DNA of 59,997 bases, filler included, from Hausera hauseri (Eukaryota): NCBI GenBank assembly GCA_046269625.1. It is 10 parts of 10 records of this genome, joined end to end, with 100 filler letters (N's around TTAATTAATTAA, not from the genome) between each part and the next. Parts side by side here need not be neighbours in the genome. Positions count along the whole stretch, not along the records: positions 12,318 to 17,145 come from JBJURY010422254.1; positions 17,246 to 26,540 come from JBJURY010409921.1; 8 more parts are not named here. One strand, 5' to 3'. How positions within the stretch are numbered: the stretch's first letter is position 1; every line of letters begins with the position of its first letter. Below, one piece after another: positions 7,121-38,459 of this stretch. Made by a program: the position numbers and the translations under genes. Under the pieces are notes generated by a model. The model saw nothing but the letters and a program-made list of their open reading frames with translations, was not told where the DNA came from and did no database searches.

Positions 7121-7369
7121 CGCAGGTCCGTTTTGACTAACAAAATATAGAAATCCTTCTTTTTCCTCGTAAGCTTCGCTGAATCGAGCCAGGTGACGGG
7201 TTAGCTCTCTGTCAGCTGGTATGATTTTGTCTTCTATGTACTTTCTAATGGCCCTTATTTCTGCATCCTCATTTTGATTTGCCTTAATTTTCTCGACTGA
7301 TCCATCTATACCCCATACGGCTGCGACTACTGCCTTTGTTTCTGATTTATCGGGTATTCTCGATAAGTA

Positions 7370-8600
7370 GTCGGCGTTGGCATTTCGCGATCCCGGCTTA
7401 TATTGGAAATTTAATGTATATGGTTGTAACTTTAGAGCACATCATAGTAGTTTGCTGTTTGGATTTTCATGCTGCTTTAGTCATTGGAGCGGTCTTTGAT
7501 CCGTATAGATCAAGCGCGGTTTATTTTCGCTAATATACGGTGAAAATACTTCTAAGACAAATATCATTGCTAATAGCTCTTTTTCTATTACAGTGTATTT
7601 CTTTTGATGCTTATTAAGTTTTCGTGACACATAGGCTACTGGGTGTTCCTTTCCATCTTTACCCTTCTGTGATAATACGGCTTCTAATCCATAATTATAT
7701 GCGTCTGTTGCCAAAATAAATGGTTTGGTCATGTCTGGATAGATTAATATAGGAGCCGTTAATAATCTGTCTTTTAGATATTCGAAACCTTTTTGACATT
7801 CGCTTGTCCAGATAACTTTATCTAAATCTTCACGTAATAATTCATACAAAAGTTTCGCAATTTTTCTAAAATCCTTTATGAATCTTCGGTAATAGTTTGC
7901 TAAACCTAGAAATTGACGTAATTCTCTAACTGTACTTGGCTTGGGAAAATCTCGTATTTTTCCCAAGAGCTTATCCTGAGGTTTTACACCATTCCTATCT
8001 ACTTTATGTCCGAGGAAATCTACATCTGCTTGAGCAAATGAACACTTCTTGGGATTTATCTTTAGACCCATTATTTCGCATCTATCAAAGAGATCCTGTA
8101 GATCCTTTAAATGTTGTTGAAAATCCGTTGATGCTATTATTACGTCATCTATATATACCATGGCATGTGGAGCATCCAACAGTAAGAGTTCTGTTCCTCT
8201 TTGAAATGTGGGTGGTCCATTCTTTAATCCAAATGGCATCCTGTTAAATTCCCACAATCCTTCTCCGATCGAGAAAGCTGTCTTCGGTTTATCCTCCTCT
8301 TTAACCTCCACTTGCCAATAACCCTTTTGTAGATCGATGGTTGTGAATATGGTCGATCCGTGTAATTTGTCTAGTATCTCGTCAATTCTTGGTAGAATAT
8401 ATGTATCCGTCTCTGTTATTTCATTCAAGGCTCTATAGTCTATACAAAATCTCATAGTACCGTATTTCTTTTTAACCATCACTACGGGCGCTGTCCATGG
8501 GGAACAACTTGTTCGAATTATCTTATTTTCTCTCATCTCTTTTATTACTTTACGAGCTTCCTGTTTCTTATCATATGCTAACCGATACGGTCTTTTCTTA
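7370..8600 (-). pseudogene. pol: Element A reverse transcriptase and RNase H
   Basis: SPWTAPVVMVKKK, RFCIDYRALN, DLQKGYWQV, MPFGLKNGPPTFQR, YIDD, FILATDA, EKELLA. Confidence 0.97.
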
Positions 8601-9218
8601 ATTGGCTTGCCTTGCCGTCCTTCAACTTAATGACATGCTGTATTACTTTCATTGTGCCTAGATCATAGTCAGTTTGTGCAAATCGACTAGCATTCTTTTC
8701 TAATAATTCGATTAACATCTCCTTCTCTTCCTTACTTACAATTTTGCATTTTTAACCTCTCGTTCCAATCAATATTCGTGGTTTTATTTCCTTTGTCTTC
8801 GTCTGGTTTCGTTTTCAGTTTTTTTGTAATCATCTTTTCTATTTTATCTACGTCCGATATTACTGAGCAGGTTTCTTCTTTTATTATTTCTTCAGTTATT
8901 GTTACTTTTTCCAAACTAGTATCCTTCCGTAATCGTTTTTCTTTATTTGTTGTATTACAAATTCGTAAGTGGATTTTTCCATCTCTTACCTTATCTACAT
9001 GAGGGGCGATTAACACTTCGTATTTTTCCATGACTTGCGGGAATGGTTTAAAATAAATTATTTCCGTCAACGTTTGACTCTATTTTTGGGATTATTATCT
9101 CAGATCTTGGTGGGATTATAACGTCTTTTATTAGTGAGACTATTCCTTCGTTATGATCTTCGTTGAATATCTTAAGTTGACATGTTCTTATATCTATATA
9201 AGCATTTTCCAATTGATT

Positions 9219-9857
9219 TCATAGATCACATCCGATTAAAATTTCATTGGTTAGATTATCTGCTATTCTAATGGTATGTTTCAAAATTTGTTCACCAATC
9301 TTAATTTTGGCATCTAATACCATCTTGATTTCTTCTTCTGTACCAAATTCTCGAACATTTACTAATGTAGTAGTTGGTCTTCGTAACTTTCTTTTCAACT
9401 CCTTTGGTAATTGATTTCTTCCCATTATCGTGGTTGTGGATTTTGTATCTAGTAAAGCCATCATTGGATATCCATTCACCTCTATTTCTATTTCTGATCT
9501 TATGGGTGATTGTTGATCATTTTTATCATCAACAGTGTACGTAGTTTCATGTTTATAAGGGGTTAAGTTTTTATCAAAATTTTGTTTCATCTGCTGAACT
9601 TGTTGTGTAGGGTATAATTCTGCATTTACTACATATCGTGGAGCTGAAGGATTTATTAACTGTTGTTCATTATACAACTGTCCATGATATTCATCCGCAG
9701 GATCTAGACGGGGTAAATCCGTTATTAACTTCTGTCTATACTTCGATTTCCGTGTCTTTAGTACCAATTGTTTGATACTGGGTACTCGTTTCTTTGCTTT
9801 CATCTGAGTATATTCAGCATCATCATCATCAGTTATATTATACGGGGATTCTTTCAT
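9219..9857 (-). pseudogene. Element A linker plus aspartic protease
   Basis: IEVNGYPMMALLDTKSTTTIM (DTG-like motif, G>K) ... ILIGCDL. Confidence 0.8.
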
Positions 9858-9884
9858 GTCTTTTCTCTGTAGTATCTTTTTCTT

Positions 9885-11570
9885 CTATCGTGCATCATGG
9901 CTTGCTAAGAAACAACTTGCCACTGCCGGGATTACCGTTATTAGAATTTTCCATGAGCATCCCACTGCTGCATGTATCCCGTATGCTTTACCAAGTGCCG
10001 TAAATACTGTCCGTATGGCGCTAATAATAAAGTATATAGCTAGAAAGCCGAAGCTGCTTGTCCGAAATATAGGAGCTTACCCCACATCTTTTCCACAACG
10101 TTTTTTGTTACCTTCCTTAGGTAATCCATACCCATAAGATTTTCCCATTGTGGTGATCCTTCGCCATCCCACATTACTCTCTGTGTTAGTTCAGTTATTA
10201 CTCGTTGTTTTTGCTGTGGAAACAACAACATACGTCCATAGTCCTCTAAATTTTGTTGTGTGTAAATTCCTCCCTGCGATATTCCTGTTTATGGTTCGAA
10301 TTTTTGATTCCTTTACAGATTAATCAAACTTAACATCTCTGATTTGGGCACTGGTTCTCTTTTGGGCATTCTAATCAATTTTTTGTTATCGATCTTAAAC
10401 ATGGGCGACATATTAAAGGTACAATTGTATAATGGGGTAGGTTTCACAATAATATCTAATAATATTCTAGTTACTGGCATCACATATCTCGGTTTCTTAC
10501 GGTAAATCACAGGTAACTCCATTTTTCATTCTTCTGTTGGTCTAACTGATACTTCTACCTTTGGCATTCTATTGTTATCAATACCTCGCCCATCATTCTG
10601 CCAATGATTCCGTCACCAAAGGTCATTACAGGTGCTACCATATCCGGATTTGTTATTACTAATGCCATTTGATTGCGCATTATTTCGTAATTCAGCTTGC
10701 ATTTATTCATTATTATTTCTCGATATAATCCTCTGATTTCTTTCCTTACATAATTGATTAAAAAATCAATCTTATTGTCGAAATATTTTGTCAACTTTAT
10801 ATCTTCCTTATCTATTTTGGTTTTTATAGCCGGTATTTCTTTTCTCGATAAAAAGATGTTCTTATAGTTAGTTTTTGATATTTCCTCATTGCATTTAGTT
10901 GCTAGTCCCGTGATTTTGAATCGCATCATCTCTTCCGGATTTTCCGAATATACAATTGTAGCTACTTCTGTCATCTTGACTTCCTTTGTTCCTTCTTTAT
11001 ATGTCGCTGTCTCTTTTTCTGCCGTTTTTCCTACTGTCTTGTTAAACTTTCCTTCCTTTAATAGCGTTAACTGACATTTACTGGCAGTGGTTTCCCATGT
11101 CATTTTCGATTCTCCAGTATCACATTCACTATTATCATATTCGCATTCGTTCATAGTCGTCATCAATTTTATCTGTGAATCGAATAATACTTCGTATTCC
11201 TTCAACTGAATCTGGTAATCCTCAATGGCTACCGTTCTCGGTGCAATAGTGCCTCCTACATCGTAATCCACTCCTTTACAGGTGCCTTCTATTGTTTTAT
11301 CTACTCTTCCAGCTCTAAATATTCCGGTATATTTTATTCGATTTCGAACTGCCAGTATATGTTCGTTTTGTATTGTTATGATACCAATCTTAAAGGCATC
11401 TTGGCATTCCGATCGTGATATAATGATTGGTTCGAAAGGTGTCGTGGGCTCGATTATGGCTGTGTTTCCCGAATAATAGGCACAATTAAACAAGAAAAAT
11501 GATCTTTCTACGTAACACTCCCTGACTTTTGCTTTTACGAATTCAGACTTTCTACCATATAAATACTACT
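9885..11570 (-). pseudogene. Element A chuvirus-like envelope glycoprotein with C-terminal transmembrane region
   Basis: ECYVERSFFLFNCAYYSG, GTCKGVDY, LYREIIMNKCKLNYEIMRNQMALVITNPD, GEVLITIEC, ELPVIY...PVTRIL, GIYTQQNLEDYGRMLLFP, KMWGKLLYFGQAASAF(fs)LAIYFIISAIRTVF...VGCSWKIL. These motifs are collinear with those I recognise in chuvirus-type glycoproteins. Confidence 0.85.
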
Positions 11571-12217
11571 TTCCTTTAGTATTTGTTGTTGTCTTTTATA
11601 CTCCTTTAGTTCTATTTCTAATTGCTTCCTTGTGCGTGGTGATAACGTATCGTTTGTATAGTTAACACTTTCCTTCTTTTTGTCTTCTTTCTTGACTTCA
11701 GGTTCGCTAGCACTATCCTCCGTTTCGTATTCCTTACCGGAGGATTTATCTGACGTGGCTGATATATAATCTTTCTTCTGTTGTTTCTTCTTGTTACTTG
11801 ATTTTGAGGACTCTCCTCTTCGTGATCTACATGACTTGGCTATATGTCCATATTTATTACAGTTAAAACATTACAACCTTCCTTCAGGATCTATGTTGGG
11901 TAAGGATCTTCCGTCCTTTTTGGATTTCTTCTTGTAGCATTCCTTTTCCCCATCGTTCCGTAAATTAAATCGGACTTTCTTTTCCACATCTGACTCAGCT
12001 TCAGTGGCTGATGTTTATGAGGGGCTTCTGTTTCTTTCATAACGTTGATATCGTTGAGTACTATTGTTTCTTCTCTTATCATAACCGTTATTATTACGTT
12101 TAGACTTATTCCACCTATACAGTTCCGCATCTCGTTCGCCTTTTCGTGCCTTTCTTATTGCTTCTTGGAACGTAGGCGGGTCTTGCTTGTGAGATTATCG
12201 TCCTTAATCTTTCTTCT
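11537..12217 (-). pseudogene. gag: Element A gag C-terminus with CCHC zinc knuckle
   Basis: Hand translation: DPPTFQEAIRKARKGE (capsid C-terminal helix) ... GRL*CFNCNKYGHIAKSCRSRR (CX2CX4HX4C at about 11829-11870). Confidence 0.85.
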
Positions 12218-16530: not shown

Positions 16531-17429
16531 TTTGAGATGCAGAGTGTTATTGGCATGTGTATTCTCAGTGTTTCCGAAAATGTAAAACAGACAGTGGTTG
16601 GAGTTCAGCATAGAATCTCTTTCATTTTCATACATGGCCATGCGGAGGTCAGGGGAAATGAATGAGCAGACAGACTGACCAGTACTGCAGGCAGCAGAGT
16701 CATGGACTGATCTGATATCATGAATGTCCTCCACGAGACTGGTCGGAAAGAAAATTCTTCAATAAGTCAGAATTTCCTCTCCCTCATGATTGCGTGAACT
16801 TTGAATGGAGCAACGTGGGGCCAGATGCAAGCGGCTCGCTGGCAGCAGCAGAAATTTGATGAATGAAAATAGAATTAGAACTGTTCGATCATTGTCTTTT
16901 GGTTTTGTGGGAATGGACTATAGGGCCCGTGGTCTTGTTCTTAGTGATGAGGATTTGCCGACTAAGTTACAGATTTACTATGCATTTTATCATGTTTCTT
17001 TTTTCAACATTTTCTGTTAGACCTGAGGTATAAGCTTGTTAAAATTATTTCAGTCATTTTAATATTATTTCTTGAACAGAGTGTCAGCCATGTCCCACTG
17101 GTTGGAAGCTGTTCCAGAAAAAGTGCTACTTGTTTTATAATGAAANNNNNNNNNNNNNNNNNNNNNNNNNNNNNNNNNNNNNNNNNNNNTTAATTAATTA
17201 ANNNNNNNNNNNNNNNNNNNNNNNNNNNNNNNNNNNNNNNNNNNNATGCTTTTTTTCTGGGTTATTTTTCGCCCTTATACCACTTTTCCGTATTCCGTAT
17301 GTGTCTCCTAGTGTAGATTCGTCACCCCACCATTGGGCCTGTTTTCTCGGAATGTAAAAACCAATTAGCGATAGTGCTAAAACTATTTGAATGTACGATA
17401 TTGGTGTGACAATTATTGAAGAAGTTTTT

Positions 17430-18500
17430 ATTTTGTGTCGGCATAAATTATAACCTTTATTAGGCCGGATTTCCGTTTTAACAACTCTTTGTACTGACAC
17501 GACTTCTTCTTTTCCGTTTTTGTTGATGTACACCGTAGTTAGTGTGGGCCTCGTAATTTTGTATGACCCTCTGCCGGTACGGATCCATTTTAATGAGGTG
17601 CCCTTCTTGTCTACTAAATAATGTACATAAACCCAATTTCCTGGTTCCAAATCATGAGGTTTCGCTTTCTTATCATATTGCTTTTTAAACTGCTCCTGAT
17701 ATTTCCCAACTCTTTTGTAATCGCGTCTGCAATACTTCTGCAAAATTTTGTTCTAAATCTTCGGGATTGAGCGGGTATGGCGTCATTCCTAAATCTGTGG
17801 GTAACACAGCTTCACGTCTATACATCATGAAAAATGGTGTAAATCCTGTTGTTGGATGTGGGGTGGTATTAATAGCAAATTGAGTTTTATCTAAAAATTC
17901 GTCCAAATTTTTTTGGTCCTTATCTACTACTGTTGATAATATGCGTATGACAGTTGCATTCATTTTTTCAACCATTCCATTACACTGAGGGTGATATGTG
18001 GTAGTTGTTAACCGTTCAATTTCAAATATCTTTGTGATCTTCTCAAATAGTTCACTTGTAAAATTTCTTCCTCGATCTGTCAATATTTGAACTGAAGGCC
18101 CGTATTGGAAAGTAATTCTTACTCCAGCTTCTGCTGAAGTTTTTGCCTTTTGATCATTATCGCTATTAATTCGACAAAATGAGTTAATCGATCAATACAA
18201 TTTAGGATATACTTATTGTTTTTGTGGGTCGTAGGAAGAAGTCCTACGATATCCATCGACATGGCTTGCATAGGCCTATCGGCCACATTAATTGGTTTTA
18301 GTTCAGCTATATAATTTTTCATTTTCTTTTGTTTAGTTGCACAAACTTCACGAGCTTTTACACAATTCTTTACATCGATATAGATACTGGGCCAAAAGTA
18401 TTTATTCAATATTCTTTCTAATGTTTTCTTCCAGGACATGTGGCACGCTAAATATGAATCATGTTTCGACATTAGCACTTTGGTTCGTAGACCCTTTGGA
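17430..18500 (-). pseudogene. Element B integrase (HHCC, DDE core, GPY/F-like module)
   Basis: KHDSYLACH...KYFWP, SMDIVG, TDRGRNF, YHPQCNGMVE, TTGFTPF, KKQYDKK...GNWVYV...GSYKI. Confidence 0.95.
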
Positions 18501-18789
18501 ATAACTATCAGTTTCCTTCCTTTTCGTTCGTAATATAAAATATCCTCATTGCTATTGTCACTTAAGATGCAGTATTTATGTCCATGTCTGTGTAAATTTT
18601 TCTTCAATTGTCGTCCCTTTGGTATGATATCCTTCTTAGCAAATTCTATAATCTGCTGAATAACTTTATCCTTTCTTTGTTTTGTGCAGATTTTAATTGC
18701 TTTATCCATCGTTAAGGCTCGTTGGCGATCTATTATTTCTTCAAGTTGACTTTTCTTCATAACCGTGATTGCGCTTGTTTTGGTCTTTA

Positions 18790-20096
18790 AACTTGATAGT
18801 GCATCAGCATCTACATGTTTATTTCCTGGTTTATACTGGAATTCGATATCGAATCTAGAGATTTCTTCGATCCATCTGTTAAGTCTGCATTTCGGGTTAT
18901 GTGCTCCGTCATTTAGGTCATGACGGCTTTGTGATTAGTGACAATAATAATTTTCTGCCCATATACGTAAACGTTGAAGTATCGAAGTGCTTCTTTTACG
19001 TCTAGAGTTTCTAATTCGGTTACGGAATAATTTTTCTCGGCCTTCTTCAAGGAACGTTCTCCATAAGCAATTGGGTGTTCTAGTTCTTCATCTTCCCTTT
19101 TCTGCGCTAATTCATATCAAATGCCTTCTTTACTGGCGTCTGTCTTGATTATAAAAGGTAAGTTAAAGTCTGGGTACCGTAAAACAGGTTTGCTTGTTAA
19201 TATCTTCTTCATGTTGTCGAAGGCTTTTTGTTCGACATCAGTCCGTTTCCATTTTATTCCCTTTTTAAGTAGACGATATAAGGGTGCATTAACTTTTAAA
19301 TTATCTGGCACATAGGAGGCAAAATATCCTCAGAGTCCTAGCCAGTTCTTTAACTCTTTTTGGTTTTGTGGTTCCATGCAATTTGGTATTTTGTTTAATA
19401 ACGATTTATCTGGTCTCAATCCTCCTTCTCCAACTATATGGCCAAGGTAGGATAGTGCGTTTTGAGCCCATTTGCATTTTTTGGATTTAATTTCAATCCG
19501 GCCTGCTCCAGTCTCATTAATGTGTGTTGAATCTCCTTTAAATGTTCCTCTTCTGTCTTTGACGCTATCATTACGTCGTCTACATATGCAATGGCACGGT
19601 CCAGTCCCATTAGCATCTTATTCATTATTTTTGTAAAAATGGCTGGCTTAGTAGTGATACCGAACGGCGTGACGTTAAATTCATACACGCCATCGTGTGT
19701 TTTAAATGCCGTTTTATATCGATCCTCATCCGCTATCTCTAATTGACAATATCCAGATTGTAAGCCCAGAGTATTGAACCATTTTTCTCCCAAAAGTCTG
19801 TGCAAAGCCTCCTTTACTGATGGTAAGGGAAAGGAATCCTTCATTATAAGGTTATTTAATGGTCTGTAGTCAATACATATTCGATGTTTTGTAGTACCTT
19901 TCTTTTTAACCATGAGGATCGGTGAATACCAGGATCTGTAACTGGGTTTAATTATATCGGCCTTAAGCATCCGTTTGACTTCCTTTGTTATCTCTGCTTT
20001 CAGTGACTGTGGCGGGGCATACAATTTCGGTATCTTTTGATATTTAAGATCTATTTCTTCATTTGAACCGGGCTTTTTCTTAAGTGGAATAGTCAA
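18790..20096 (-). pseudogene. pol: Element B reverse transcriptase and RNase H
   Basis: SPILMVKKK, RICIDYRPLN, KTAFKT, YVDD, PFIIKTDASKEGI. Confidence 0.95.
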
Positions 20097-20619
20097 TCTT
20101 AATGCTTTAGCCCGACCGATATCCTCGTCGTCTTTAGCGATAACTGATTTTTAAATGCACAACAGTTCATAAAATCGACAGTAAGATTCAGGAGAAAATT
20201 TATTTTCTACATGAGGTGGAAATTGGGCATACTTCTAAGGCTTTTCTTCAATAGTTTTCGACGACACTCTATAGGTATCTCCTAGAGTAGTATAAGCATA
20301 AAGCTTTACGGGTTCCGTACGTTATTTGCTATCCTAATTGGTATACGACCGAAGTGTACTCTTGTCAGTACGTTACTGAGCGTTATATTTGGATTTAATG
20401 TCTCCTTTGGTTCAAAATATACCGGTTGATCGTTATATTGTTGAACTTGAGCATAGATTGTTGTCTCTATTCTTGGTGGAATCTAGTGGTATCCACACTT
20501 CTCCAAACTTCCTATCTTTAGAGTTCCTTATACCTTTATTTTGTCTAATTTCTATTAATTTTTCAGTATGCAAGTCGATTGCTATAATTGGTAACCTTTT
20601 CAGTAGATCACACCCTAAA

Positions 20620-20937
20620 ACTGTCGTCGGTTAGTTGTTCAATAACTGCAAATTCATGACAGAAAAACTGTCCAACTACTTGAACTTATGAATTCCATTT
20701 AAATATGGGTTTGGACATTTGACCAAAAGCTCCTGTACTTCCGGGATCTTTTGTAGACGGTGGGTATAATTGTCTGCTGAGCGTTTGAGGTATTGAATCA
20801 TTTTTAATGTAAGACATATAAGACCCTGTATCGATTAATGCATAAACTTCCCAATCTTTAATAACGATTTTGGCGAAAGGTCTTCCTTCTATTGCTGTTC
20901 CAAAACAGTTTGATGCTATTTTTGGGCGTTTAGTCAA
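20620..20937 (-). pseudogene. Element B aspartic protease
   Basis: RPFAKIVIKDWEVYALIDTGSYMSYI ... VLGCDLL. Confidence 0.9.
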
Positions 20938-21561
20938 CGATATTTCATGTCCATTAATTGGAATCTATGGAGAAGATACTATGTTCTCAGCCAATTGCTT
21001 TACTTCTCCGTTTGGGTATAATTCATTGTTTTCAATGTTTAATTCTTCAGCTTCATGAGTACTGGTTAATGGTTCTCGGTTGTTAGTGTGCGGTTCTATG
21101 TTCCATAAAATTCTTAACATTGAATTTTCCCAGACAGGCGACTTAGTCTCTATATTACAAGGTTCACTCTGGGAGTAAAACATCCTGGGATCATCCCCGG
21201 ACTGTCGGTAACACATTTTCCGTAAGACTCCATAACGTTTTGTTCCATCATAAGGGTTTTCGACATTAATTGTCCTTTTAAAGATTTCCGTCTAATAGGA
21301 ACTCATTGATTGTTTGTCACAGTCTTCATAGACTGGAGCGGTAGAAGATAACATAGGCAATAGTGCTTTAATGACAGAGTACGTCTTGTGTCTGTTTATT
21401 CTTGAAAGTACTTCTCCTCCCTTAGGATCGTCATCATTTGAATCATTTCTTCGCATACTAGGTCTTGTAAATTTCCGCTTGTACAAGAGCATAGGCCTTC
21501 CTTGTCGTTTACGATTATAATAACCGACATCGCGTTCTATGGCCGATTTCCATCTATTTTC

Positions 21562-23392
21562 CTAGTATGCTTTTAAAAACTTTCCAAAGGGCGTTATGAT
21601 TGCAGTCAGTATTTTACATAAAAATCCGGTGAATGTAAATATTTCATACCCATATATTACTGCTTGGATGACTGCTGTAATCATTTATATCAGAAAATAT
21701 ATTGCTAAGAATCTGGATGCGGCTTGACCAAAAATCAAAAATCTTCCCCAAATTTTGTAAAGTATTTATGTGGTTACTCGTTGATAATGGTTTAGGCCAA
21801 GTAAGGATTCCCATTTAGCCTGATATCATGTATCGTCTACTACTGAGGCCATGGCTCGGTTTAATTAGTGTGTTCGTTGCCGCGGAAAAGCGAGGAAATG
21901 TCTGGAGGCTTCGATTTCCTTAGGCCTGTATATGCCTTTCGACGAGGTATCTCGGAATTTGTCATCCGTAATTACTTTCACAAGATTTGTTCCCGTTAAT
22001 TTAATTGGGGAGGTAGTAATAACTCCATTTGTCAAACTAACCCAGTCTGTTTCACTACGTCTAAACATGGGTTCCCCTAAGCTTGCCTTACAATCTTTTA
22101 GAATGGTTGGTTGGGTTGCATTATCCAATAACACTCTCGTCAGCGGTGTAGCTAACTTGGGAGTATTCTGATAAATAACATAAAGTTTTTGAATTGCAAC
22201 GTTTTTCTTCTATGTTTATGGGTACATCCCTCTTTTCACATTCGTAAGTTAATAGTACTTCACCCGTGACCCGACTGAAAATTCCTTCTCTCATAGGGAT
22301 TATTGGAGAAGCCAACTCTGGGTTGGCGTATATAAAGGCCAATTTTGTCCTCATAATCTCGGTATCTAATTTACAGTAATTCGTTATTATTTTGTGATAT
22401 AATTACATTATTCCGACTTGTCTTTTGTAATAAAAATAATGATATCTGTTCTTGAAGTAATCCTCAACTCGGATATCCTGTGTTTCCAACTTATAGGTCT
22501 TCACACTTATCTCGGTTTCGGCGATAAAGAATGCTTCATAGTTAGTAGTGAACATTACTACGTCACAACGGGAAATCATCTCCTTTTTAATAAATTTCAG
22601 TCTATGCTGATCCGAGACTAATATAATGGATGTAGGGTGTTCCGATACGTCTTCGAGTGTCCTTGAGTTTGTATTCGATTTATCCACATATCGCTTTTCG
22701 GTAGTTTCAGTTTCTTAATTTTAATAAAATTACACTTTCTTCAAGAGGGAGGTTCCCATATTATAACAGAACTTCTAAAAGCACAACTTCCGTCTTGTAA
22801 ATGACACTTTTGATTCTCGGTGTATAACTTGGTGACACTATGGAACATTACTTCTGTGATCGCATCTCTGATTCGCAGAAGTTTACGGCCACCACCTTTG
22901 CTTGTAATCCTTTTCCGGTGTCGTATTCCGCCCCGTTACAATGTCCGCTATGCATATCTAACCTTCCGACCACTACTTTGCATGCCCTAATTATTTTTCA
23001 TGGTTGCATTTCTAATTGCATACTGTCCCATTCTATTCTTCCAGTTTCTTGCCCTGTTTGTAGTGCTGGCTTTCAAAGTTCATTGGGATTAGAGAAGTTG
23101 TTGGTTTGATTATTGAGGAATGTCCGTGTACCAACCCGCAGTGAAAAATGCTACAAAATCGTATCAGCATACATTCCATTCCATCTAACGATATTAATTC
23201 TTGTTGTTGGTACACGAAGTAATTTTTCTCTCTTGCTTCCAACTTGTGCGGTATGGCATCTTCGCACACTTCTAAATCTATTAGGAAATATCTTTTCCAT
23301 AGTTTGAACTTATCGCAATCGTAGACAGTAACAGTGCCTATGTGCTTTATTAGCATCATCAAGGTGAGGAGGTTAATTAACCAACTTAATTC
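21562..23392 (-). pseudogene. Element B chuvirus-like envelope glycoprotein, essentially full length, with internal signal peptide
   Basis: WLINLLTLMMLIKHIGT-VTVYDC...LIDLEVC, ECMLIRFCSIFHCG, GHCNGAEY, LYHKIITNYCKLDTEIMRTKLAFIYANPE, GEVLLTYEC, GIYRPKEIEASRHFLAFP, KIWGRFLIFGQAASRFLAIYFLI. Aligns along its length with the element A glycoprotein. Confidence 0.87.
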
Positions 23393-26300
23393 ACTCTTCC
23401 AGTGGCTCGTATCCGTTGTTGTCAAATTATGCAACATATCGTCGAGTGTATTACTATTACTGGTCCGCTTGTCTTTTTCCTTGTCAAATAGTCTTGACCA
23501 AGCTACTTCGCGGGGCAGCTTCCTCGCCACTCTTCGTGCTAAGGTTATAACTCTATTGATTTCATTCTCTCGATTAGGGTTTATTTTGATAGCTAAATAC
23601 AGTAATACTTTCCTTAATACTTTATTCGTGTTTTCTGCAATGATCTTTTCGATTACCGATTCATCGGTTAGGTTACTTTTCGGTAGTTTAAAATGCAAAC
23701 TTCTCATTATTCTAGCTGCATTAAATATGACCTTTTTCTTATCACCTAATGTGTCGCCTCGAAGCTTGAATAATTTACAATTCGTATTAAATTCTTCATT
23801 AACTCGCTTAATTCTTCAGTATCTGTGCTGAAAGTCGGAATTGACATTTGTCTCAATTCTCTAATCAATTCTCCATTATAATGGACTAAATCTCGTGTCT
23901 TCTTAGGCCTACCGACTGGGCGTTTCTGTCTTGGGACATTGGCCATCACTTTACTCAGTGGAACTAAATTCTTGTCGTATTGTTCCTTATCCTCATCCGT
24001 TTGTAAATACTCGAAATACATTGCAGCGTCTCGTACTCCCATGATTTGTCCTACGCATCATTCTGTCTTGGCCTTACGCATGGCTTCTTTTTTAGTTTGC
24101 TCTTTGGCTACTATTGACATTATCCGACTTGTTTCGTCGAGAATAATTCCGACGTCTATTAACTGTCCTAGATCATCTAGTATTCTACCTCTAAAATAGA
24201 ATCTATAGTTTAGCTCGTTTGTTCCGCCATTATTTAATAACCATTCTCTAACGTCCCTTAAATAGGAATATGTAGTTAACTCACATTCTTTTTCGTCCAT
24301 CCACTCGGACGATATCATTACTTTCATCACTACCGCCGGTTTAACCCTTAATATTTTAGCGTATTCCCTGATCAAAAGTTTCGGCACCGTGCTATAAATT
24401 GTGTTCTCACTAGATAATTTAGTTAAGGTCGGAATAAGTTGTCTTAACCTACTTTCTGTAATGTTCACGTTAATTAATTTAATTAAATCTTTTTCAGTTA
24501 GCGCCAAATCCAGGAGCATCTCCACATTGAATCTCCTGTCCTGCGGACACGTTTCTATCTCATTTAATTGCACTGGAGTCACGGGTTTTTCGGCCATTTC
24601 TACCAATAAGTAGGCTACCCATACATTTCATTTATGACTTTTGAGTCTGGATCAATTGCATCCGACAATTTCTTTACGAACTCAGATTCTTGAAAACTGA
24701 GATGTTGGTCATTTCTTATCTTTATCAACTCGGTATGGAAATTTTGATCTGATCCGGCCATCCATTCTTGTGGTTTATGCAAAAATCTTATTACGTCTAT
24801 TAACGTAGCTTGGTCTTCCGGACAAATGTCTAGGGTCTTAATATCTTGAGCCGAGGTCTCATCAATAGGTTTATCTGTTATATGTTGAACTTCTTCTAGT
24901 CGGACATTCCTCAATCTTGGGTAAAATTTGCAAGTCATATTTCGCCTCTCCGTAAAGTTCGTCTCTTCGATCATCTTATAGATCTCTTCCAATAACGTTG
25001 CGTCTTGCTTCTTCTTCTTAAATTAAGTTGTCTTAATACATCAAATCTCGTTCGGATGTCTATTTCTGCTATTATCGTATATAGGTTACGTGCGCTTTCT
25101 TCTAACTGTTTCTTTACAGAGGTCTCGCTTCCTGGAAATTCTTTCTTTCAATCTTCCGCTATTTTGCCTAATCACATTACTAATTCGGACCATTCTGACA
25201 ACTGATTGGCGATTATTGGCTTTGTCGTTATAGCCTTATCTAGCATCTTATATGCATCATTTAACTCGTCATCTGGCCCTTTTATAAAGTTCATAATCCG
25301 GCTGACATAACTAAATTCATCTTTATATTCATCAAATTCTGCGATACAAGCTCTTACTACATATTCAGTTTCTTCGTTGTTTGGAGACAATCCAATTTCT
25401 CAAACTACAAATCTGTGCTCGCTTTTCATTTTCTATTTTGATCCGATTCTCTAGGTTTGTATATTGTTTGGGTACAACAAATGCAATTTTTATCATTTCC
25501 ATTAAAGGAGGAGTATCTATTGCGTCTATACCCAATATTTCTAAATCGACATTACTTCGACTATTAACCGGTTTTTCTCTGAGTCGATTAATCATTGTGC
25601 AACGAATTTCATCCATCGTACGTTCTAAATTCCGGACTACCCTCTTCAGTTTTGGATTTATTCCTAAATTAGCCAAGAGTGTTTTAGCTTTAGCGACTTT
25701 TATATCAATGCTATCTTCGTTTTTGTTCCATCCTTCCGAAAATTCGATTCTGCTTTTACTCCAGGATTCTAATTCATGCTTTCATTTTAACAGTGTTTTA
25801 GGTGATACCTCTTCAGGTTGTCCTAAGTCGATTGCTTCCTCTAGCTTCCCTTCACTGCATAGTTTTAAGCTTTTATATAGCCTCTCAGCAAACTGCTGCT
25901 CTTTCCCGGATATATCTATTTCTTCGCTAATCTGCTTAAGCCTTTCTAGATTTCGCTGTAATATTTCTGGGTCGTGGCATCTAATTTTTATTTTCTTTAG
26001 CTCATCGGCGTTTCTCCATGAACGTTGGACTTTTCACTTTCTTGGGTCAAAATCATCAATATTTACCGTTTCTTCCTCACTAATGGGGAGTGGGCAAACT
26101 TCATTAATTTCATTAATCGATTCTATAGACTCCGCTGTCCCAACAGGCGTGAGTAATCCAATTTTAGGTACATTCAACCTATGGTCCGCGTCGCCTTTTA
26201 CCGCTATGTTCGGACTTTCCGTTTCTTCAGTTTTCTCTCTAGTTATTTGTGAACGTGAACGACTTCTACGTTTCGTCTTAAATGAAGGGCTACTGCCTCT

Positions 26301-26540
26301 ATTTTTCGCAATTTTAAGTATTAATGGTTCCATAAATTCCTTTTCTGCTGTATCGTCCTCAGTGGAATTATCTACTTTTTCGCCCGTGAACTCAGGCTCT
26401 GCATCTAAGTCGACTTCTGTCGAAGTTCCTGTTTAATCAGATATCTTATTACTTGTCGGAACACTCTTTTTTCGTGTCATATCAATTCGCTTGGGTGCTA
26501 TCGCATGCTCATATTCAGTTTCTTGTTCTGCTAAACCATG
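23393..26540 (-). pseudogene. Element B long ORF1 (about 1000 codons, fragmented): basic/SR segment, charged helical region, AT-hook-like motif, gag-like C-terminus
   Basis: Consecutive minus-strand ORFs 26034-26333, 25365-25676, 25172-25390, 24615-24992, 24058-24606, 23746-24042 and 23033-23707. KRPVGRPKK at 23899-23925. Gag identity is inferred from position and a MSIPTFS segment. Confidence 0.55.
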
Positions 26541-26640: not shown

Positions 26641-27133
26641 TAATATCAGATTCCGCATCGGATGAAAGGTCCAATTTTTCACCAATTATAACATGTCCAC
26701 CTAGCCGTAGACGTTTTTAATATACATTGACTTATTAAAAACCCCATACCTGAGAATCAGCTATAGATTTAAACTACATTTCCATGGGATTTCGATGCAC
26801 TAGTTTCATATGGTAGTTTGAAAAATAAGCATAAACCGAGAAATTTTGTCGCGAATAATTTCGAAGAGTATATGGGTTATTGTGTTGGATTGTCCGCAAA
26901 CGACGTGAAATAGGTTACGTTTCTTGTCGGGTAAAGTAAATACCACTGTTCTGATGTATTGTCATTGGTGAAAATGTAAATGTGAATTACGTCAGAGCCA
27001 CTTCCCAACCCCCGTGGCGTAAATCGACCGGTTGGTCCAAGTGCATGGCAAACTATTTAGCGGTATTGTCATTGTCGTCATGTTATGATAATGATCTGTT
27101 ACTATCAAGTACCAAGTAAATGTTGCTGCTCAT
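26641..27133 (-). pseudogene. Maverick/Polinton minor capsid (penton-like) protein N-terminus, absent from the ORF track
   Basis: MSSNIYLVLDSNRS...DNTAK*FAMHLDQPVDLRHGGWEVALT*F matches the pattern FYxxLPSNxS...NTxxxFxxxLxxPxxLxGxWEVxL. Its ATG overlaps the integrase TGA (ATGA). Confidence 0.75.
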
Positions 27134-28148
27134 TGAATCTGTGATGCAAAAATGCTACTCGGTGCAGTGTATCCGTGCCACTTGACGAGATATTGTTTAT
27201 TCGAACCTTTTTCACGTGAACGTAGAATTTCCCGAATAAAATATACATAGGGTTTCTCGGGCAGTACCCGCAGTTCCTGTTCGTAGAATATATCGCGTAT
27301 TTCCTCACCGTTTTTTTCCTCTGAAACATACATGACAGGTGTTTGTTTTGTTTTGAATGCCAAAATGCTAAAAACCTCGTCGCTCCAGTTCTGATTGAAA
27401 TTCTTAATGAATGCCGTCGTGCTTATTTTCGAAATACGCACGTAAGCACCGATTTTATATTTTGGACGTTTAATTGCTCGTTGTCGGTTTTGATAAAGCC
27501 TTATGTCCAAATCATCGATAAAGTCAACCGGGCGCATTTCGTTGATTCCACGGTGTGTCGAGTGATTGTATGCATGAATAATATCCGGCAATATATCTAC
27601 CCAGTGTTTTTTGCCCTGCTTCGTAAAGAATCTGTTTAGGCGACCGCACAATGTTCGATTAAATCGTTCAACGAGTACAGTCTTGTATTGGGAAAACATC
27701 GAGTAGTGTATTATGCCTAACCTTTTCAAGACCGCTGCAACATGGGTGTTGTAGAATTCCTTACCCAAATCCGTTTGTAAATGCTTCGGCTGTTGTTGTT
27801 GTTGTTGCATCAGTGTCTGAACAGCGTCGGCAATCTATTTACCGAATTTAGATTTCACAGCAATTGCACGTGCAAAAAAACTAAACACATCAATACATGT
27901 CAGCACGTACCGATACCCATCATTGATGCTGTCGTACGGAATCATTTCCATCAGATCCATTTACCATACGTTATTTACACCAGCAAAACGGTATGCACGA
28001 GTTAGAAACTGCCTTCTTATCGGTTTGTTTAGGCTCTATGCTAATTGTTTTCCGAGCCAACGTTGGGTCTGTTGCGAGTCTGTTTGACAGTCTTTGCCAG
28101 TTTGTCGACGTCAGTATACCTGACGGGATGACGCGGATCGAACCACAT
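27130..28148 (-). pseudogene. Maverick/Polinton retroviral-like integrase with C-terminal chromodomain
   Basis: MWFDPRHP..DVDKL, W*MDLMEM...GYRYVLTCIDVFS, LQTDLGKEF, VERFNRTL, YNHSTHRGI, YKIGAYVRISK, NWSDEVF, FYEQEL, QYLVKWHGY. Confidence 0.93.
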
Positions 28149-29028: not shown

Positions 29029-31479
29029 GTTCTCGTGGTAATTTGTGTAATCGGTTTTAAGCGTCGTCGTCGTCGTACAAAATAAAATTCACGATTTTTC
29101 TACAAAAAACGAACGCATTTACAACCATGACTTTTGAACAATGCGTTTTTCGATTTATTTTTTACCCGGATCCGTTGGTCTGATCGTGAGGAGGTTATAT
29201 GAAAATTTCCCCAACTTATGAGCAATGTATGAGACCCATTTCCATCTTCGGCAGACTTGAACATGGGGAAATTTTACCAGACGGAAAATTTCCCAATCGG
29301 TTTTCCTCATGTTCCCTTGGTCGGACGACGACAAAACCGTGTCTATTCGAGTTGAAAACATCAATTTTACCTCTGTACAAAATTTTGGTGTACCCAGCAA
29401 CATGTGTTGCGTTGCCAGTTGCACATTGCCCGTTTTTCTTCTGCCTCCTGCTCCGCCAGGTTACATTTTACGGCTTCGCGGCGCTGTTTACTTTTGTTCG
29501 CCTTGTCCGGCTCGACCGATTGGTCTCGGTTCAAAGTCCATTGTTCGACCTTCTTCTTTCCCTGGAGGGGGGGGGTCTCCGACCTCGAGACATGAAATGC
29601 TCAGAATTGCGAGATAGGTGGGGAAAACTAGGTCCGAGGTCGATCTGACCACTTTTGGGAAAGTGGGCTGGAGCCCACACTTCTACCTACTTTCCTCATA
29701 TTATTGTTGATTTGGCCTTTCTTTGTGGTGTCCTTTCTTTCCCATTTATGTACTGTGCCCATGCGGTCACCTCTTGCACTTCCTAAGATTTAAGCCCATG
29801 TGAAAAGGCTGAGACATTTTTATTCAAAAACGATTTCCACAAGGCTGCTGTTTTATTTTTTTTACCAAATTTTTGAATTAGTTGGTGTAAAATCCGAACA
29901 TTTCTCCAAAGAGTTAAGTGCCACATTAGAATCATTTACATTTACTGTACAGGTTCAACCTGTGCCAATGCTAGTATACTCTGAATTCCTTATTTCATCG
30001 AAATGACGCATACGCCTATTTCTATGATTACTACTACAATTTTTTTGCGAAATGAGGTTCATTACATAAGTAGCATTATTTAATTTTGTAAAATCTTATA
30101 AGATAAACGTTCGTTGACGCACTTTGCGAAAATAATCAGCACACACACTGATTAATAAATTTTTTAAATTCATCAGAAAAGCTTGGAAGATAATAATACA
30201 AGCAACAAGAGAAATTTGTTGCTCAAGTGTAGGCATGACTAAATGTCATGTTTTAGTGCCTAGATGTTTTCCCCACGTGTTGCCAGGGATTATGTTTTAA
30301 ACGTGCACATATATTGCTACTTATGTTAGAGCGACAGGCCCAATTCAGGCAGAAATGACACAGCATCGGAAACAACAGCAGCTACAAAACTACCATATTT
30401 GGTTCAGTCTTTACAACAAACAAAAAAGAAACCACCCATAAATCTAAATGTGTGGGTGTACATGAATAATGATTTTTTTTTCAATAATGTTGTGTCAACA
30501 ATATGGGGATGAAAAATTTAAATCTCTCTCACGACAAGTTTAGGTCAATCACTGGGTTTCTACTGTTACATTTACTAAAGGAATTTCAATTATTCACTAT
30601 GAGTTTGATTCCATTCTGTAGTTATTCTTTCTTTTTGCACGTCGGCCTGTACAGATTCGTCTCTTCTTCTATTCATATAGTTTCTGTTCAAACTGTGTAT
30701 TTGTTTCTTTGCTAGTTGATCTATCCATCGTTCTAGTTATCTATCTTCAATCGATCAAACAACGTTGCAATCCGTCAAAGAATCTTTGAGTCTTTCTTTA
30801 CATCCATGTATGTGTCTTTTAAACGCCCATTTTATCGCTATACCTTTTATATCCTACAGTTAGACGCAGCTATCTGATTGTTTACACATGTAACCCCAAG
30901 ATTTATGGCGATGTTTCCACACATACCTCTGAGACATATCGCTAGTACATAACTGACATTGACGTGAAAGTATTTGATCAGCCAAAGTTATTCTTTGGTT
31001 GTTATTTGATCATCAGCTGTGTAACTAGCACTCTATTTTTAGTATTTCTGCTTGTGGAAGATAAGCTAAAGGATTTGTCACTTTTGATATGCCTTTAAAT
31101 CTTTATCATCCCNNNNNNNNNNNNNNNNNNNNNNNNNNNNNNNNNNNNNNNNNNNNTTAATTAATTAANNNNNNNNNNNNNNNNNNNNNNNNNNNNNNNN
31201 NNNNNNNNNNNNGAATTGAATACAATCAATTTTCCCATCACATATCTCATTTGTAAGTTGTTTAATTTCAGCTTCTAAGTCCATTTTTTTTCTATTTAAA
31301 CAATGTATTTAACGTTTGTTTATCAAAAAGTCAGAAATAACAATAACAAGATTTATTAATATAACAATAACTAGATTTAATAATATAATAATTAACAAGA
31401 TTTAATTTCAAGAATTTTCCAGATGGGTTGACTTTTTCAATCATTTTCTTTCAATGCTTGGATACATACTTTAATACAT

Positions 31480-32800
31480 GCCATTATGTATTGGGACAGA
31501 TCCATTGTTGATATATCACAAATCATAAAATCTTTGAATTTTATTGAGCGTGACCGAAAATAATGCTATCTTTCGTTAATCAAATTATCATGGCTTATTC
31601 CAAGTGCCTGTATTTCTGCCGACAGTTTGATGTAGTTCTCATCCATAATGTCTTTGACATCGTATAAAGTCCAGTACCCTTTTATTCGATGAAATCAACA
31701 GATTGCGCACCGTATTTAATTTCGACCATAGGTTTGTTTCCTGTTCAAGCTTCGTTCAACGTTTTGTAAAATGTAATCGGCTGAACAATACTCGTCAAAA
31801 TCAGACAGTAAAAGGAACAAATTCTCTGAAAATTATGGCGTGAATAGATTGAGTAACAGAACGGATTTTTGGAGTAATAATGAATAAATTAAAAATCGAA
31901 TTTACAACACAATTACTCGGATGAGATGACTCAATAGAAGAAAAATCCAAAGAAACTGAATAACTAATGCCTTTAGATCGACAAATCAGGTTCAATTTGA
32001 AAAAGCAAAACGTTGTCATTTTCAGATTTTATATTGATGTAATTCGCCATTGATTTAAGTTGACAAATAAACAGTCTTAAGTTAAAAAAACGGACAGTAA
32101 TGACCAACATTGAAAACTAAAGGGCTTCTGAAAGACTTCCATTTGTTGAAAATATCGTACTGAGTTTCAAGGACATCTACACAGATGGAATTTGGAATAC
32201 CAGTTTCATTAAACGTGGTATCCAAATTTATCAAAGCTATTTTTCTCGAACATCTTGTGGCGTAATTGGCTAATACTTTGAGATTTTGGACAATGTAATT
32301 TCATCAATGTTCGGTCCGTAGATTAAAATTCTTGGACCTCTCCATTGAATTACATGATGTTGTTCTTTGAGGTTCTAAAGAAATCATGTAGATTGCGCAA
32401 AATATCCGGCTTAAAAGCAATCCTATTGAAAGACATTCTCTGAAAATTTAGAATTTCTTAATTTACATAAGAAATGCATCCAGTATAGCTAATGATATTG
32501 TATTCGTCTCGTTGCAAATCGATTTCAAAACTCAGAGGAATTTCAGAACCAATTATTTCGGCTGTTCCTTTTATAAGCAACATTATGGTAGGTTTTTCAC
32601 ATTTTGACATAATTGATTCTTCGACTTTCAAAGTAATAATTTTCCATTTTTCTAATGCTGGGTTGATTGCAATATGCGCGTTTGAAAGATAATCAAACAT
32701 ACATAGAGTATCAATAATATGATTTATTAAATGTTCCGGTACAACCATTTCTGCTATAAACTGGCACAATTCATCGCGAACAATATGCCTGTTTTGCAAA
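31480..32800 (-). pseudogene. Unidentified degraded intronless coding sequence (left flank of gypsy element C)
   Basis: Protein-like minus-strand fragments (32458-32800, 31801-32019) broken by stops. No motif recognised. Confidence 0.35.
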
Positions 32801-32959
32801 ATTTTCGAGGTGGGGAATCGGGCCCAACTATGTATCCGCCGCGACGGCAACGGACGCCCGGCCGCGCCTGACCAAATGGGCCAAAGGGCACCGGCCGCTG
32901 TGGGCACCAAAAAAATCGCTAAACGAAAAAGTGTCTGTGTCAGCTAGTCTTAGTGTGAA

Positions 32960-35900
32960 CAAGACGTTGGGTGCCTTCTACTGATTTTTCCCTGCTATAC
33001 ATACTAAATGTGACTCTGCGTGTTTTGTCTTTATGCCATGTGTTTACTTGCAAAGTTTGAAATTGGGGAAAAAATTATCCGATTTTGTTGTGAATGTTGT
33101 GTCGTGCAAAGACGAGTCAAAATAAAGAGAAGAAGAAGGTGAAGGAGAGAGCGATTGTTTAGGACGGATGGCTAAAGGTATTCAAGAGAGTATTAGAACA
33201 CAAAGGACTGAAAAGAGGTGTAGTGGCGGATGAAGGAGGAGAGACGAAAAATGGCGTAGAAATTGAAAGTGTATTAGGTGAAAGAGTATAAGTAGAAGAT
33301 GAAACAGAGGTAGTAGTAGAGAGATAGATATAGGGATAGAAGTAGAGAGAGGAGAAAGTTGCGAAGCGGAAATGAAAGGAGTAAAAGACGATGTGTGAGG
33401 AGAGAGGGAGAAAGAGAGCGACGAGTATGAGTAAGGTGTGGAAAGAAAAAAAGAGAGAGGAAGTGAGAAGACGGTGAAGAGGGAAAAATGGAAGAGAGCA
33501 AGAAGATGGAGAAGGCGAAGGAAAGTAGTTGGAAGGTGGCATGCAAGAGGTTGGAATGATGAAAGGGGTAGATGGAGAGATTGATGAAGTCAAAGTGGTG
33601 TTTGGCGGAGGAGGTCTTGTAAAAGGAGAAAGCAGGTTGTCACCAGGGGATGAAGGAGGTGTTAAAGGCTTGAGGGTTCAAATTCGGATGGGGAAAAATG
33701 GATGAACAATCAGAAAAAATTGAGGTAGAAGTCTTGGGAGAAAACGTAGGGGAAAGTGGGTTAAAGAATTCAGCAGGGATGGAAGGTGAATTTTTGGATT
33801 GCTGCGCGTTGTGTAAAGTGTTGGTAGAATAGTTGTTTCGATGGGAGACGTATCGTTAATGAAGAAAGCGGGCTAAGCGTTGTTGATTTGGATGGTTACT
33901 TCTTTGTCGTCCTTGAGAATGATGGTGTTGTGAGAGTGTAAAAGAATTACTTTTTAAGGACCAACATACTGAGGTTGAAAACCACACGGCATTTGATTCT
34001 TTAGCCATACGAACTTGGCAATATATAAATCATCGTGTATGTTGGATTTACTTCCGTGTAACAGTCTACAAAATGAGTTTTTGCTGAACTCAATGAAGTG
34101 TCTCTGGGCCGCTTGTATGGTTTCGTCTGTAGGAATATTGTCCAGCTCAGCTAGCTCGAATAATGGTCTGAAAGAAGTACCAAATAATGCTTCTGCAGGG
34201 GAGAAGCTTGTAGAAGTAGATTTTGTGTTCCGCCAGCCAAGCAGAACGTACGGAAGGAGTGTAGTCCAACTGAAATTGGACTTAGCAAGGATTTTGAGAG
34301 ACGTTTACATCGTTCGGTGAAAGCGTTCGAGAAGGCCATTCGATTGAGGATGATATGATGACGTGTGAATGTGGTTAATTCCCAATCGATTGACAAGAGC
34401 TTTAAGCAGGTTGGATTCGAACTGTGGACCTTGGTCAGAAATGATGTGGCGAGGTGATCCAAACCTGCTGATCCAAGTGCGGATGACAACGCCTGCAATG
34501 GTTTCTGTGTTAGTGCTCCGAAGCGGAACGGTCCGTCATTGTGAGGATGAACTGATGGCCGTTGCCTAAAGGTAATGGGCCTACAACATCAATGTAGACA
34601 GATTCGAAACGAGACGTGCAGGGAAAATGAAAGAGTGGTGGCTTTAAGTGCTTAGTAACTTTGTATTTTGGCATGACACCCACGGCCTAACCCATGCCTG
34701 CACGTCAGAGCGCATCGACGGCCATACTACTTGGCGTTGTAAAAGTCAAACCGTGGCCTTGGCACCAGGATGATGCAACGCATGCACGCTGTTGAATGCT
34801 TCTTTTTGAAGCGATTCAGAAAGAATGATTTTGGGATTATTAGGTTTATAGGTATCAAAGGCCACATAATCGATGGTTTTTCACGATTTAGAAGACTTAA
34901 AGATGTCAGGAGGTGGCTGATTTTGCTGAAGTTTGGATTGAGGAAAAAATGGTGTAAACTCAATCGAGCTGACCGATCGGGATAAGAAGTCAGCTACTAA
35001 ATTGTAGACTCCGTTTAGGTGCTTAATTTCAAAATTAAATGTGGACAAATACTATATTTGCCTCTCCTGACGTGGAGAAGACGATTTCATGGTGAGAATT
35101 TGAAGCAAGGGCTTGATGTCCATTTGTATTGTAAAAGTTCGTGCAGTTTGCAGATGTTTACAGTGTTTTACGGCAAGGATCGTTGCAAGCAACTTTCGGT
35201 CAAAGGTGAAATATATTTGCTCCTGTGCTGTGAATTTTCGAGGAAAGAATTCCAATGGCTCATGGGATCCATTTTTCACTTGATGGAGGACAGCACCTGC
35301 AGCTGTTGTGGATGCGTCCGTGGTTAAGAAGAGTTCTGCTTGGGAGTCTCGATAAGCCAGGATATCTACAGTTTTCAAGTTGTCTTTGAGACGATAGAAA
35401 GTATTGACTAGATTGGCGGTCCATTGAATAGGCTGTTTCTTCTTGCCGGAGCTCAGTGATGCAAATGGAGCGGTTAGAGCAGAGCAATGTTGAACGTACT
35501 TATGAATAAAGTGCAATGTTCCGAGGAAGGAACGCATCTCTGTTGATGTACGTGGTAGCTGTATGTTTTTGAGCTGTGTGATGCGGTCTGGCTGAGGTGA
35601 GTGTCCGGAAGAGCTAATAACATATCCTAGGAAGTTGATCTTATGTCGAAAAAAAAGCATTTGGAGAAATTGATTTGCAAGTTGTTTTGGTGCAGGTGTT
35701 GAAAGATCAAATGTAGGTGTTCGAAGTGCTGCTTCGAGGAAGATGATTCAATTAGGATATCATCGATATAGGGATAGGCGAAGTCTAAGCCTGATAGCAC
35801 TGTATCGACATGCCTTTGGAAAGTCTGAGAAGCGCTGAGGAGTCCAAAGTGCATATACAGATATTCGAAAGGCCGAAAGGTGTAATGACAGCCGTTTTGG

Positions 35901-37030
35901 GAACGTATGCAGGTGCCACCGGAATTTGGTGGTATGCATCATGTAGATCATTGCAGGAAATGATGGTCGAACCATGGAGCCTGTGAAGGATGTCGTTGAT
36001 TAATGGTAGAGGGTAAGCATCCATTGTTGTTGTGGTGTTAAGTTGGCGGTAATGGCCGCATGGGTGAAAGGTGCCATCCTTTTTTTGGAACCACATGCAA
36101 TGGTGAAGGGATTTGGATCTTCTGATTATGCCTGATTTTTCAATGTCGAGAAACTCAGCGTCCACTTCCTGTCTACGTCGAGGCGATAGCGGGCGGATCT
36201 TTTGCCGGATTGGTCGTTGATGTGCAGTTACTATGTGATGTAAGGTGGATTGAGGTGATACAAATGATTTGTCCTTTTGCAACAGACTCGAGCAGGAGGA
36301 CGAAATGTATTGTTGTAAATCAGAAGGCAAAGATGACAAATTATCCAATGGAGTCGATGCATCATGACTGGATGCAGTTGAGGTATGAGTTATAGACGCG
36401 GTGTTGTGACTTGGTGGTATTTGGTGCAGGATGTTCGTGTTGAAGATGGTGTTGGCAGTTGTGCTATGAGTAATACGTGCCAAGCAGTTAGTAATATCGC
36501 ATTTGTTACCGAAATAAAAATTTCTATATAATAAATGATTATAAAAATAATTCAAAACGGTAGTCGATTTCTTTAGTATTGACTTACTGGACGCGATCGC
36601 CGGGGTGGTCATTGAAATTCTGCTGATTTGATTAAGATTATCTCCGCTTTTTAAGGACCATTGTTTGCAATCTACAAGTAAATTTTAGTGGGACAGAAAG
36701 TCTGAACCCAATATAGGTGTGCGTACATTGGCTATTGTAAATTTCCATGTGAATATGTTTGTGAAGTGTGGGAGGGTGAATGTTAATGTGGTAACTCCAA
36801 AGATTGGTAAAGGTTCACCGGAAGCAGTGAAAAGTTGCTTTTGTGAAGTGTAATTGTGTTGTATGTGTATGTGTTGTGTTGGTGGCAGCAGAGAGATAAG
36901 AAAGTTTATTTTTTGTTTTGTTGGAGTGATGACTGCTGCTTCCAACGTGAAAACAGCAAAGGAAATGTGTCGGCTGTGTTTTTGCAGGTTGTTGCCTTTG
37001 CTAGGACTTGCCGTGTGTCCTAGCGGAGAA
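32960..37030 (-). pseudogene. pol: Element C pol (PR-RT-RH-IN plus Ser/Pro-rich tail)
   Basis: ORFs 36685-36945, 35785-36612, 35627-35854, 35052-35660, 34727-34963 and 33159-33593, plus a hand-translated integrase core at about 33850-34650. Confidence 0.92.
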
Positions 37031-38442: not shown

Positions 38443-38459
38443 AATTCCCTGTACGTAAT

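Follow-up and report, generated by a model that had tools for sequence, protein, structure and literature searches.

A truncated, decayed Ty3/gypsy element with a chuvirus-type envelope ahead of pol in a Hausera hauseri assembly is very probably a Burro-like gag-env-pol copy

How a viral-type envelope glycoprotein came to lie ahead of pol in a Ty3/gypsy element is the question raised by one contig of a Hausera hauseri assembly (GCA_046269625.1). We analyzed a 59,997-nucleotide stretch of this assembly (the window), in which 10 contigs are joined by N spacers; one entire contig (JBJURY010409921.1, 17246–26540) is a retroelement on the minus strand, termed element 1. A first-pass annotation had presented element 1 as a candidate new lineage with an undescribed architecture, arising from an independent capture of a chuvirus-like glycoprotein. 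Our results indicate that element 1 is very probably a truncated and decayed copy of a high-copy Ty3/gypsy element, carrying a chuvirus-type envelope (env) before pol and likely belonging, as a divergent member, to the Burro-like gag-env-pol group already described in the literature. Three-frame translation and Pfam searches bore out the gene order that the annotation had read on one strand: open reading frame 1 (ORF1), glycoprotein, protease (PR), reverse transcriptase (RT), RNase H, and integrase (IN). The features of element 1 are as follows, in coding order:

24628–26540, minus strand: upstream ORF1, split into three frame pieces and running open off the contig; unassigned, with no match to Pfam, the capsid profile, or the relatives
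24121–24498, minus strand: helical hairpin and ubiquitin-like module (cargo); profile E 2.5e-9
23899–23925, minus strand: motif GRPKK, which we take to be AT-hook-like; read directly
23480–23745 (approximate), minus strand: degenerate Bcl-2-like region immediately preceding the signal anchor; 7.6 bits
23324–23380, minus strand: internal glycoprotein signal anchor, sharing its frame with the ORF1 end; hydropathy 1.66
21562–23323, minus strand: chuvirus/gB-type envelope glycoprotein (PF24664), broken by three frame changes and several stops
about 21655–21711, minus strand: C-terminal membrane helix of the glycoprotein; hydropathy peak
20899–21561, minus strand: unassigned spacer of about 220 codons in the frame of the glycoprotein C-terminus and the protease; bridged by other copies
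20623–20898, minus strand: aspartyl protease, with DTG at about 20824–20832; RVP E 0.034
19485–20144, minus strand: RT with YVDD; RVT_1 E 1.1e-25
18907–19479, minus strand: connection and RNase H; RT_RNaseH_2 E 8e-31
17465–18886, minus strand: bridge region and IN in three frame pieces; Integrase_H2C2 E 1.5e-13, rve E 0.0019
17360–17416, minus strand: hydrophobic helix past IN; hydropathy 2.08

Both contig ends fall within element 1, one inside ORF1 and the other just past IN. The copy is decayed: 23 stops were counted across 16 single-frame stretches, some of them merely closing a frame piece, and at least 11 frame changes were found. This copy is unable to make its proteins. The decay had gone unmentioned in the first-pass annotation. 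Two reading frames nevertheless run across gene borders. One is common to the end of ORF1 and the signal anchor and is open from 23033 to 23815, and the other joins the glycoprotein C-terminus, the spacer, and the protease; such sharing fits the expectation of one ancestral polyprotein.

The pol region follows the PR-RT-RNase H-IN order of Ty3/gypsy (Metaviridae). Its named matches are gypsy-type pol proteins, and it is colinear with gypsy-type relatives at 30–48% identity (37–48% for RT), rather than being a BEL/Pao-type pol. The protease was recognized by the weak Pfam match, by the motif LIDTG read directly, and by weak matches to the proteases of relatives. Together with the RT tree described below, the named matches uphold the assignment of pol to Ty3/gypsy.

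The glycoprotein, a cysteine-containing membrane protein, was matched by PF24664 (Monjiviricetes_fusion) in three colinear single-frame pieces, covering profile positions 6–96 (E 4e-4), 244–396 (E 1e-12), and 402–598 (E 7.6e-21). The two hydropathy peaks, at the signal anchor and the C-terminal helix, flank an ectodomain, as in the gB-type errantiviruses of GAG-ENV-POL order, and identity to the glycoproteins of relatives was 27–37%. The fold was evaluated on one of these relatives, P0002, using an AlphaFold model built from 87 sequences (predicted local distance difference test score, 85). The model matched herpesvirus gB (E 2.9e-14), the best 50 PDB rows all being herpes gB, and matched chuvirus glycoproteins with E 7.8e-45. 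The predicted element 1 glycoprotein is thus chuvirus-like and of class III type, as had been proposed, judged from its profile matches and from the model of its relative.

A second element with the same layout was found on another contig of the window:

6766–12217, minus strand: element 2, with a CCHC knuckle, glycoprotein, PR, RT, RNase H, and the start of IN; tblastx and Pfam

Element 2 matched element 1 by tblastx with E 9e-110, and Pfam detected both PF24664 (E 1.6e-28) and zf-CCHC (E 1.4e-4) in it. A gag feature before env is present as a knuckle in element 2, and neither capsid nor knuckle lies on the element 1 contig. Profile searches of element 2 found no ubiquitin-like or Bcl-2-like cargo. 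Its knuckle leads almost straight into the glycoprotein, by eye without a hydrophobic signal anchor, and in RT it stands nearer to the giant relatives, at 57% against 44% for element 1.

Relatives were collected by HMMER, the query being the glycoprotein frame of element 2 that is open over 336 residues. This search returned 236 matches, with long polyproteins at the top, and further searches added five relatives and the locus L001. A word-index protein search with the same glycoprotein returned nothing, against the 236 matches by HMMER, and a PDB sequence search gave just two chance matches. Related loci numbered none in viral contigs, none in prokaryote genomes, and one (L001) in metagenome contigs. 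Among 25 relatives scanned with Pfam, 13 carried the glycoprotein and then RT within one ORF, and none carried the glycoprotein after IN. Single-ORF relatives were colinear with element 1 over the glycoprotein, RT, RNase H, and IN. P0157 and P0153 showed the order capsid, two CCHC knuckles, two ubiquitin-like modules, Bcl-2-like domain, anchor, glycoprotein, and pol. Capsid and knuckle were found in P0153, P0155, P0157, P0016, and L001, the last being an open frame of 2693 residues with capsid, knuckle, env, and pol in that order; no long direct repeat was found in L001, hence long terminal repeats (LTRs) were not seen there. Ankyrins were present in P0151 and P0157. The position of env before pol, shared with element 2, is a lineage trait and not a nested insertion, which is what the first reading had held.

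Two trees were computed, neither containing named chuvirus, Burro, or GyDB sequences. The RT-RNase H tree (42 rows, quick IQ-TREE search, built without a BEL/Pao or copia outgroup or GyDB profiles) contained a 16-row group with support 93, comprising both window elements, all 13 env-before-pol relatives, and P0152, which belongs to the same cluster as P0151. In the glycoprotein tree (FastTree; 49 rows, comprising 23 long proteins, 24 stand-alone glycoproteins, and the two window elements), both window elements fell inside a 15-row group of polyprotein glycoproteins with support 96. This nesting speaks more for descent of the glycoprotein within the lineage than for a fresh capture.

We next consider the region before the envelope, which the first-pass annotation had called gag-like. 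The upstream ORF1 gave nothing below E 0.01 in Pfam and nothing below E 0.1 against the relatives. A capsid profile built from seven relatives reached at best −1.4 bits in element 1, compared with 172.8 bits on the control L001, and no CCHC knuckle was seen in the translated contig. ORF1 thus exceeds 1000 codons without a capsid. It does contain the helical and ubiquitin-like module, which sits at the same position as in the relatives. This module is visible by profiles only; pairwise BLAST of the ORF1 pieces against P0001 was not significant, and earlier, smaller profiles gave E 0.013 (ubiquitin-like, three segments) and E 0.74 (Bcl-2-like, four segments) on the window. A motif similar to GRPKK occurs at the same position in P0001, P0006, P0154, P0157, and others. 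The relatives' domain at the Bcl-2-like position matched the Bcl-2 family by sequence (E 0.0017–0.01; Pfam E 9.6e-4), and the modeled fold of a relative's cargo domain gave ubiquitin matches. We conclude that ORF1 of element 1 is a cargo region and that its identity as gag is not supported. The idea that ubiquitin-like and Bcl-2-like cargo is itself a new discovery was dropped, since PMC6431247 already describes such cargo in its account of Burro.

The claims of a new lineage and an undescribed architecture likewise did not survive comparison with the literature. According to Arkhipova and Yushenova (2019; PMC6431247), planarian Burro/GYPSM1 runs in the order gag, knuckles, Ubi2/SUMO-like, BCL2, and env, followed by PR, with an env that matches mononegavirus fusion glycoproteins; they present it as the first case of an env placed in frame between gag and pol, and for the giant gypsy elements Burro1-4/GYPSM1 they cite Grohme 2018 and Jurka 2007. 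As described there, these elements resemble element 1 in having env in frame before the protease, an env related to mononegavirus fusion glycoproteins, a ubiquitin/SUMO-like module upstream of env, and very high copy number, with decayed copies too. Their BCL2-like domain directly before env has a candidate counterpart in the weak Bcl-2-like match of element 1. The domain order of P0157 and P0153 is also the order given for Burro (PMC6431247). Burro is further characterized by a dUTPase-like region between PR and RT, by MATH, BIR, and ankyrin domains, by giant size with LTRs, and by planarian hosts; the env-protease interval of element 1, at only about 220 codons, is a difference. In a catalogue of errantiviruses, Chary and Hayashi (eLife 2026; PMC13524379) report GAG-ENV-POL elements with gB-type env, linked to Chuviridae, in Nematoda, Bryozoa, and Platyhelminthes, the flatworm hosts listed being Macrostomum, Prostheceraeus, and Schmidtea. 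These share with element 1 the Ty3/gypsy pol, the gB-type env before pol, and an ectodomain between a signal/membrane helix and a second membrane helix, but the catalogued elements are intact whereas element 1 is decayed. Host-specific cysteine-bridge configurations of env (C1, C2, C3) are also defined for that group. The main text of PMC13524379 contains no occurrence of "ubiquitin", "ankyrin", Bcl-2 terms, or Burro. The nematode endogenous retroviruses (NERV; Sacco et al. 2022, doi 10.1099/jgv.0.001739, as cited in PMC13524379), in which an RNA virus glycoprotein was captured, share the flipped order of env and pol with element 1 and have nematode hosts. Consequently, the gene architecture is already published, and element 1 likely adds a distant member to a known kind of element instead of representing a new one.

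Several observations weigh against placing element 1 with Burro. No MATH, BIR, ankyrin, capsid, or LTR was found on its contig, so that gag and both LTRs, if once present, lie off it; the broken frame pieces gave no Pfam match to a dUTPase-like region, MATH, BIR, or ankyrin, with two of the three frames of 20150–20620 scanned. The Bcl-2-like match of element 1 was equalled by 4 of 1000 shuffles, and with the profile run over the whole window it reached E 1.0, with 23480–23745 not the top match. In the fold searches with the cargo model, ubiquitin alone appeared among the best 50 and no Bcl-2 protein did; the domain was not folded singly, and the alignment folded held the window's Bcl-2-like piece misaligned. 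Support for the RT group, at 93, falls short of 95, both trees come from quick searches, and element 1 sits on a long branch in each (1.49 and 1.44), at base level in the RT group. Finally, the likeness rests on domain order and on the relatives collected here, with Burro compared by description.

Three other explanations were weighed. Element 1 could belong to a compact, non-Burro gag-env-pol branch of bryozoan or nematode type, distant from the planarian elements. Its env and IN lie close together, as they do in P0008, P0010, and L001, and the RT tree does not fix its position at the base of the 16-row group. Against this stands an ORF1 of this length with a ubiquitin-like module and no capsid; the module was not found in the compact relatives P0013 and P0016 or in L001 (L001 by Pfam), and the element 1 glycoprotein groups with those of cargo-bearing relatives. 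We consider this branch assignment very unlikely.

That a separate gypsy lineage made its own capture of a chuvirus glycoprotein, as the first-pass annotation had inferred, is largely refuted, and we give it very little weight. The long branches in both trees, a best RT-RNase H identity of only 44%, and the report that GAG-ENV-POL elements are not monophyletic in pol (PMC13524379) speak for it. Against it, the glycoprotein of element 1 groups with those of related polyproteins and not with stand-alone virus-type glycoproteins: 22 of the 24 stand-alone sequences lie opposite or on their own branch, and two lie with P0097/P0120. Summed tblastn bits over glycoprotein-only matches were 232–276 for five polyprotein relatives, compared with about 100 for the best stand-alone ones, and the shared position of the helical and ubiquitin-like module also argues against a separate capture.

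Element 1 is best read as a likely Burro-like family member. One public run (X1) contains the stretch; it is possibly the source sample and hence not independent. In this run, 25,515 contigs mapped to element 1 at 85–99% likeness, covering 30 of 30 bins, which points to a large family whose copies have diverged. It is exceedingly improbable that the contig is an assembly misjoin or that viral sequence was inserted, nested, between gag and pol pieces of unrelated origin: although the contig is of short-read style from a high-copy repeat, no single X1 contig spans the whole element, and X1 depth drops as low as 24 in one bin of the spacer, the X1 pieces listed overlap from 20723 to 21550 across the glycoprotein-protease spacer, one 528-letter X1 contig links the protease interior to the spacer as far as 21371 (with 244 other letters replacing 246), no internal long repeat was found in element 1, and both the single-ORF relatives and element 2 keep the same order.

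Compared by domain order, element 1 would work like a Burro-type enveloped retroelement. From its anatomy and from what is known of retroelements and class III fusogens, the active ancestor most likely made one polyprotein with two membrane crossings. The internal signal anchor would direct the class III-type ectodomain into the lumen of the endoplasmic reticulum, and the C-terminal helix would stop transfer, placing the protease and pol back in the cytosol, with gag and cargo on the other cytosolic side. Signal peptidase and the element's protease would then release the parts. The capsid, whose gene in this copy would lie beyond the contig end, would package the RNA, RT and IN would carry out its copying and insertion, and membrane fusion by the gB-like protein would allow cell-to-cell spread. 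The Bcl-2-like and ubiquitin-like modules may influence cell death and protein turnover in the host.

In the mosquito element Anakin, a chuvirus-type glycoprotein reportedly lies after pol. Anakin resembles element 1 in combining such a glycoprotein with an LTR retroelement but is BEL/Pao, whereas element 1 is Ty3/gypsy (Dezordi et al. 2020; PMC7642597).

With element 1, a published group gains a decayed member, the annotation of the pre-envelope ORF is corrected from gag to cargo region, and two literatures, the Burro work and the 2026 errantivirus survey, are connected. We propose, tentatively and with more doubt than confidence, that it represents a deeply diverged Burro-like branch that has multiplied to very high copy number in a non-planarian animal, perhaps a parasitic flatworm, that env in the middle with ubiquitin-like and Bcl-2-like cargo marks an old, wider lineage, and that the 640-codon front of ORF1 may be new cargo. 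A literature search outside subscription papers turned up no report of Burro-like elements from parasitic flatworms. A host other than a planarian would extend envelope-bearing elements that carry cell-death and ubiquitin-type cargo in both range and age.

The reading frame runs on past IN into a tail with hydrophobic helices in P0006, P0008, P0013, P0151, and L001, and a hydrophobic helix stands at 17360–17416 in the window. This tail is likely a second membrane protein. The element 1 helix showed no sequence match to the tails of P0006, P0008, P0013, and P0151; it is likely the start of the membrane-bound tail known from relatives, cut by the contig end. At least two aspartyl protease domains per polyprotein were seen in P0003, P0004, P0006, P0007, P0012, P0015, P0151, and P0154–P0156. 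P0151 has six protease stretches, and in some relatives the extra proteases follow IN, with C2H2 fingers or ankyrins between them. P0008 (HBK71150.1) is filed as a Flavobacteriaceae bin protein; its DNA likely comes from an animal retroelement that was binned with bacterial sequence. P0013 has a compact domain before the envelope (residues 110–300) without a Pfam match at E 0.001, which by eye we take to resemble a DEDD-type nuclease.

The window contigs are seemingly mixed in origin, and neighboring contigs therefore give no firm indication of the host. Further decayed gypsy pieces (RT, RNase H, IN, and DUF7041 gag), without a glycoprotein match, lie at 31213–41614, 41715–45765, and 55282–59997, and a GPS-motif fragment lies at 55990–56772. 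The contig at 26641–31112 carries an integrase core and chromodomain at 27133–27834, with weak Pfam matches, the integrase being presumably Polinton-like. At 45866–51107, there is a 30-base tandem repeat and an ORF without a Pfam match, which we take to resemble fish repeats and the end of a fish long interspersed nuclear element (LINE); these contents suggest a mixed assembly. The contig at 1–6665 holds a long intron-free cytochrome P450 (579–2036, minus strand), joined to a fragment that we assume to be a LINE end, and a Tudor ORF (3971–5530, plus strand), and looks like a patchwork of cDNA pieces.

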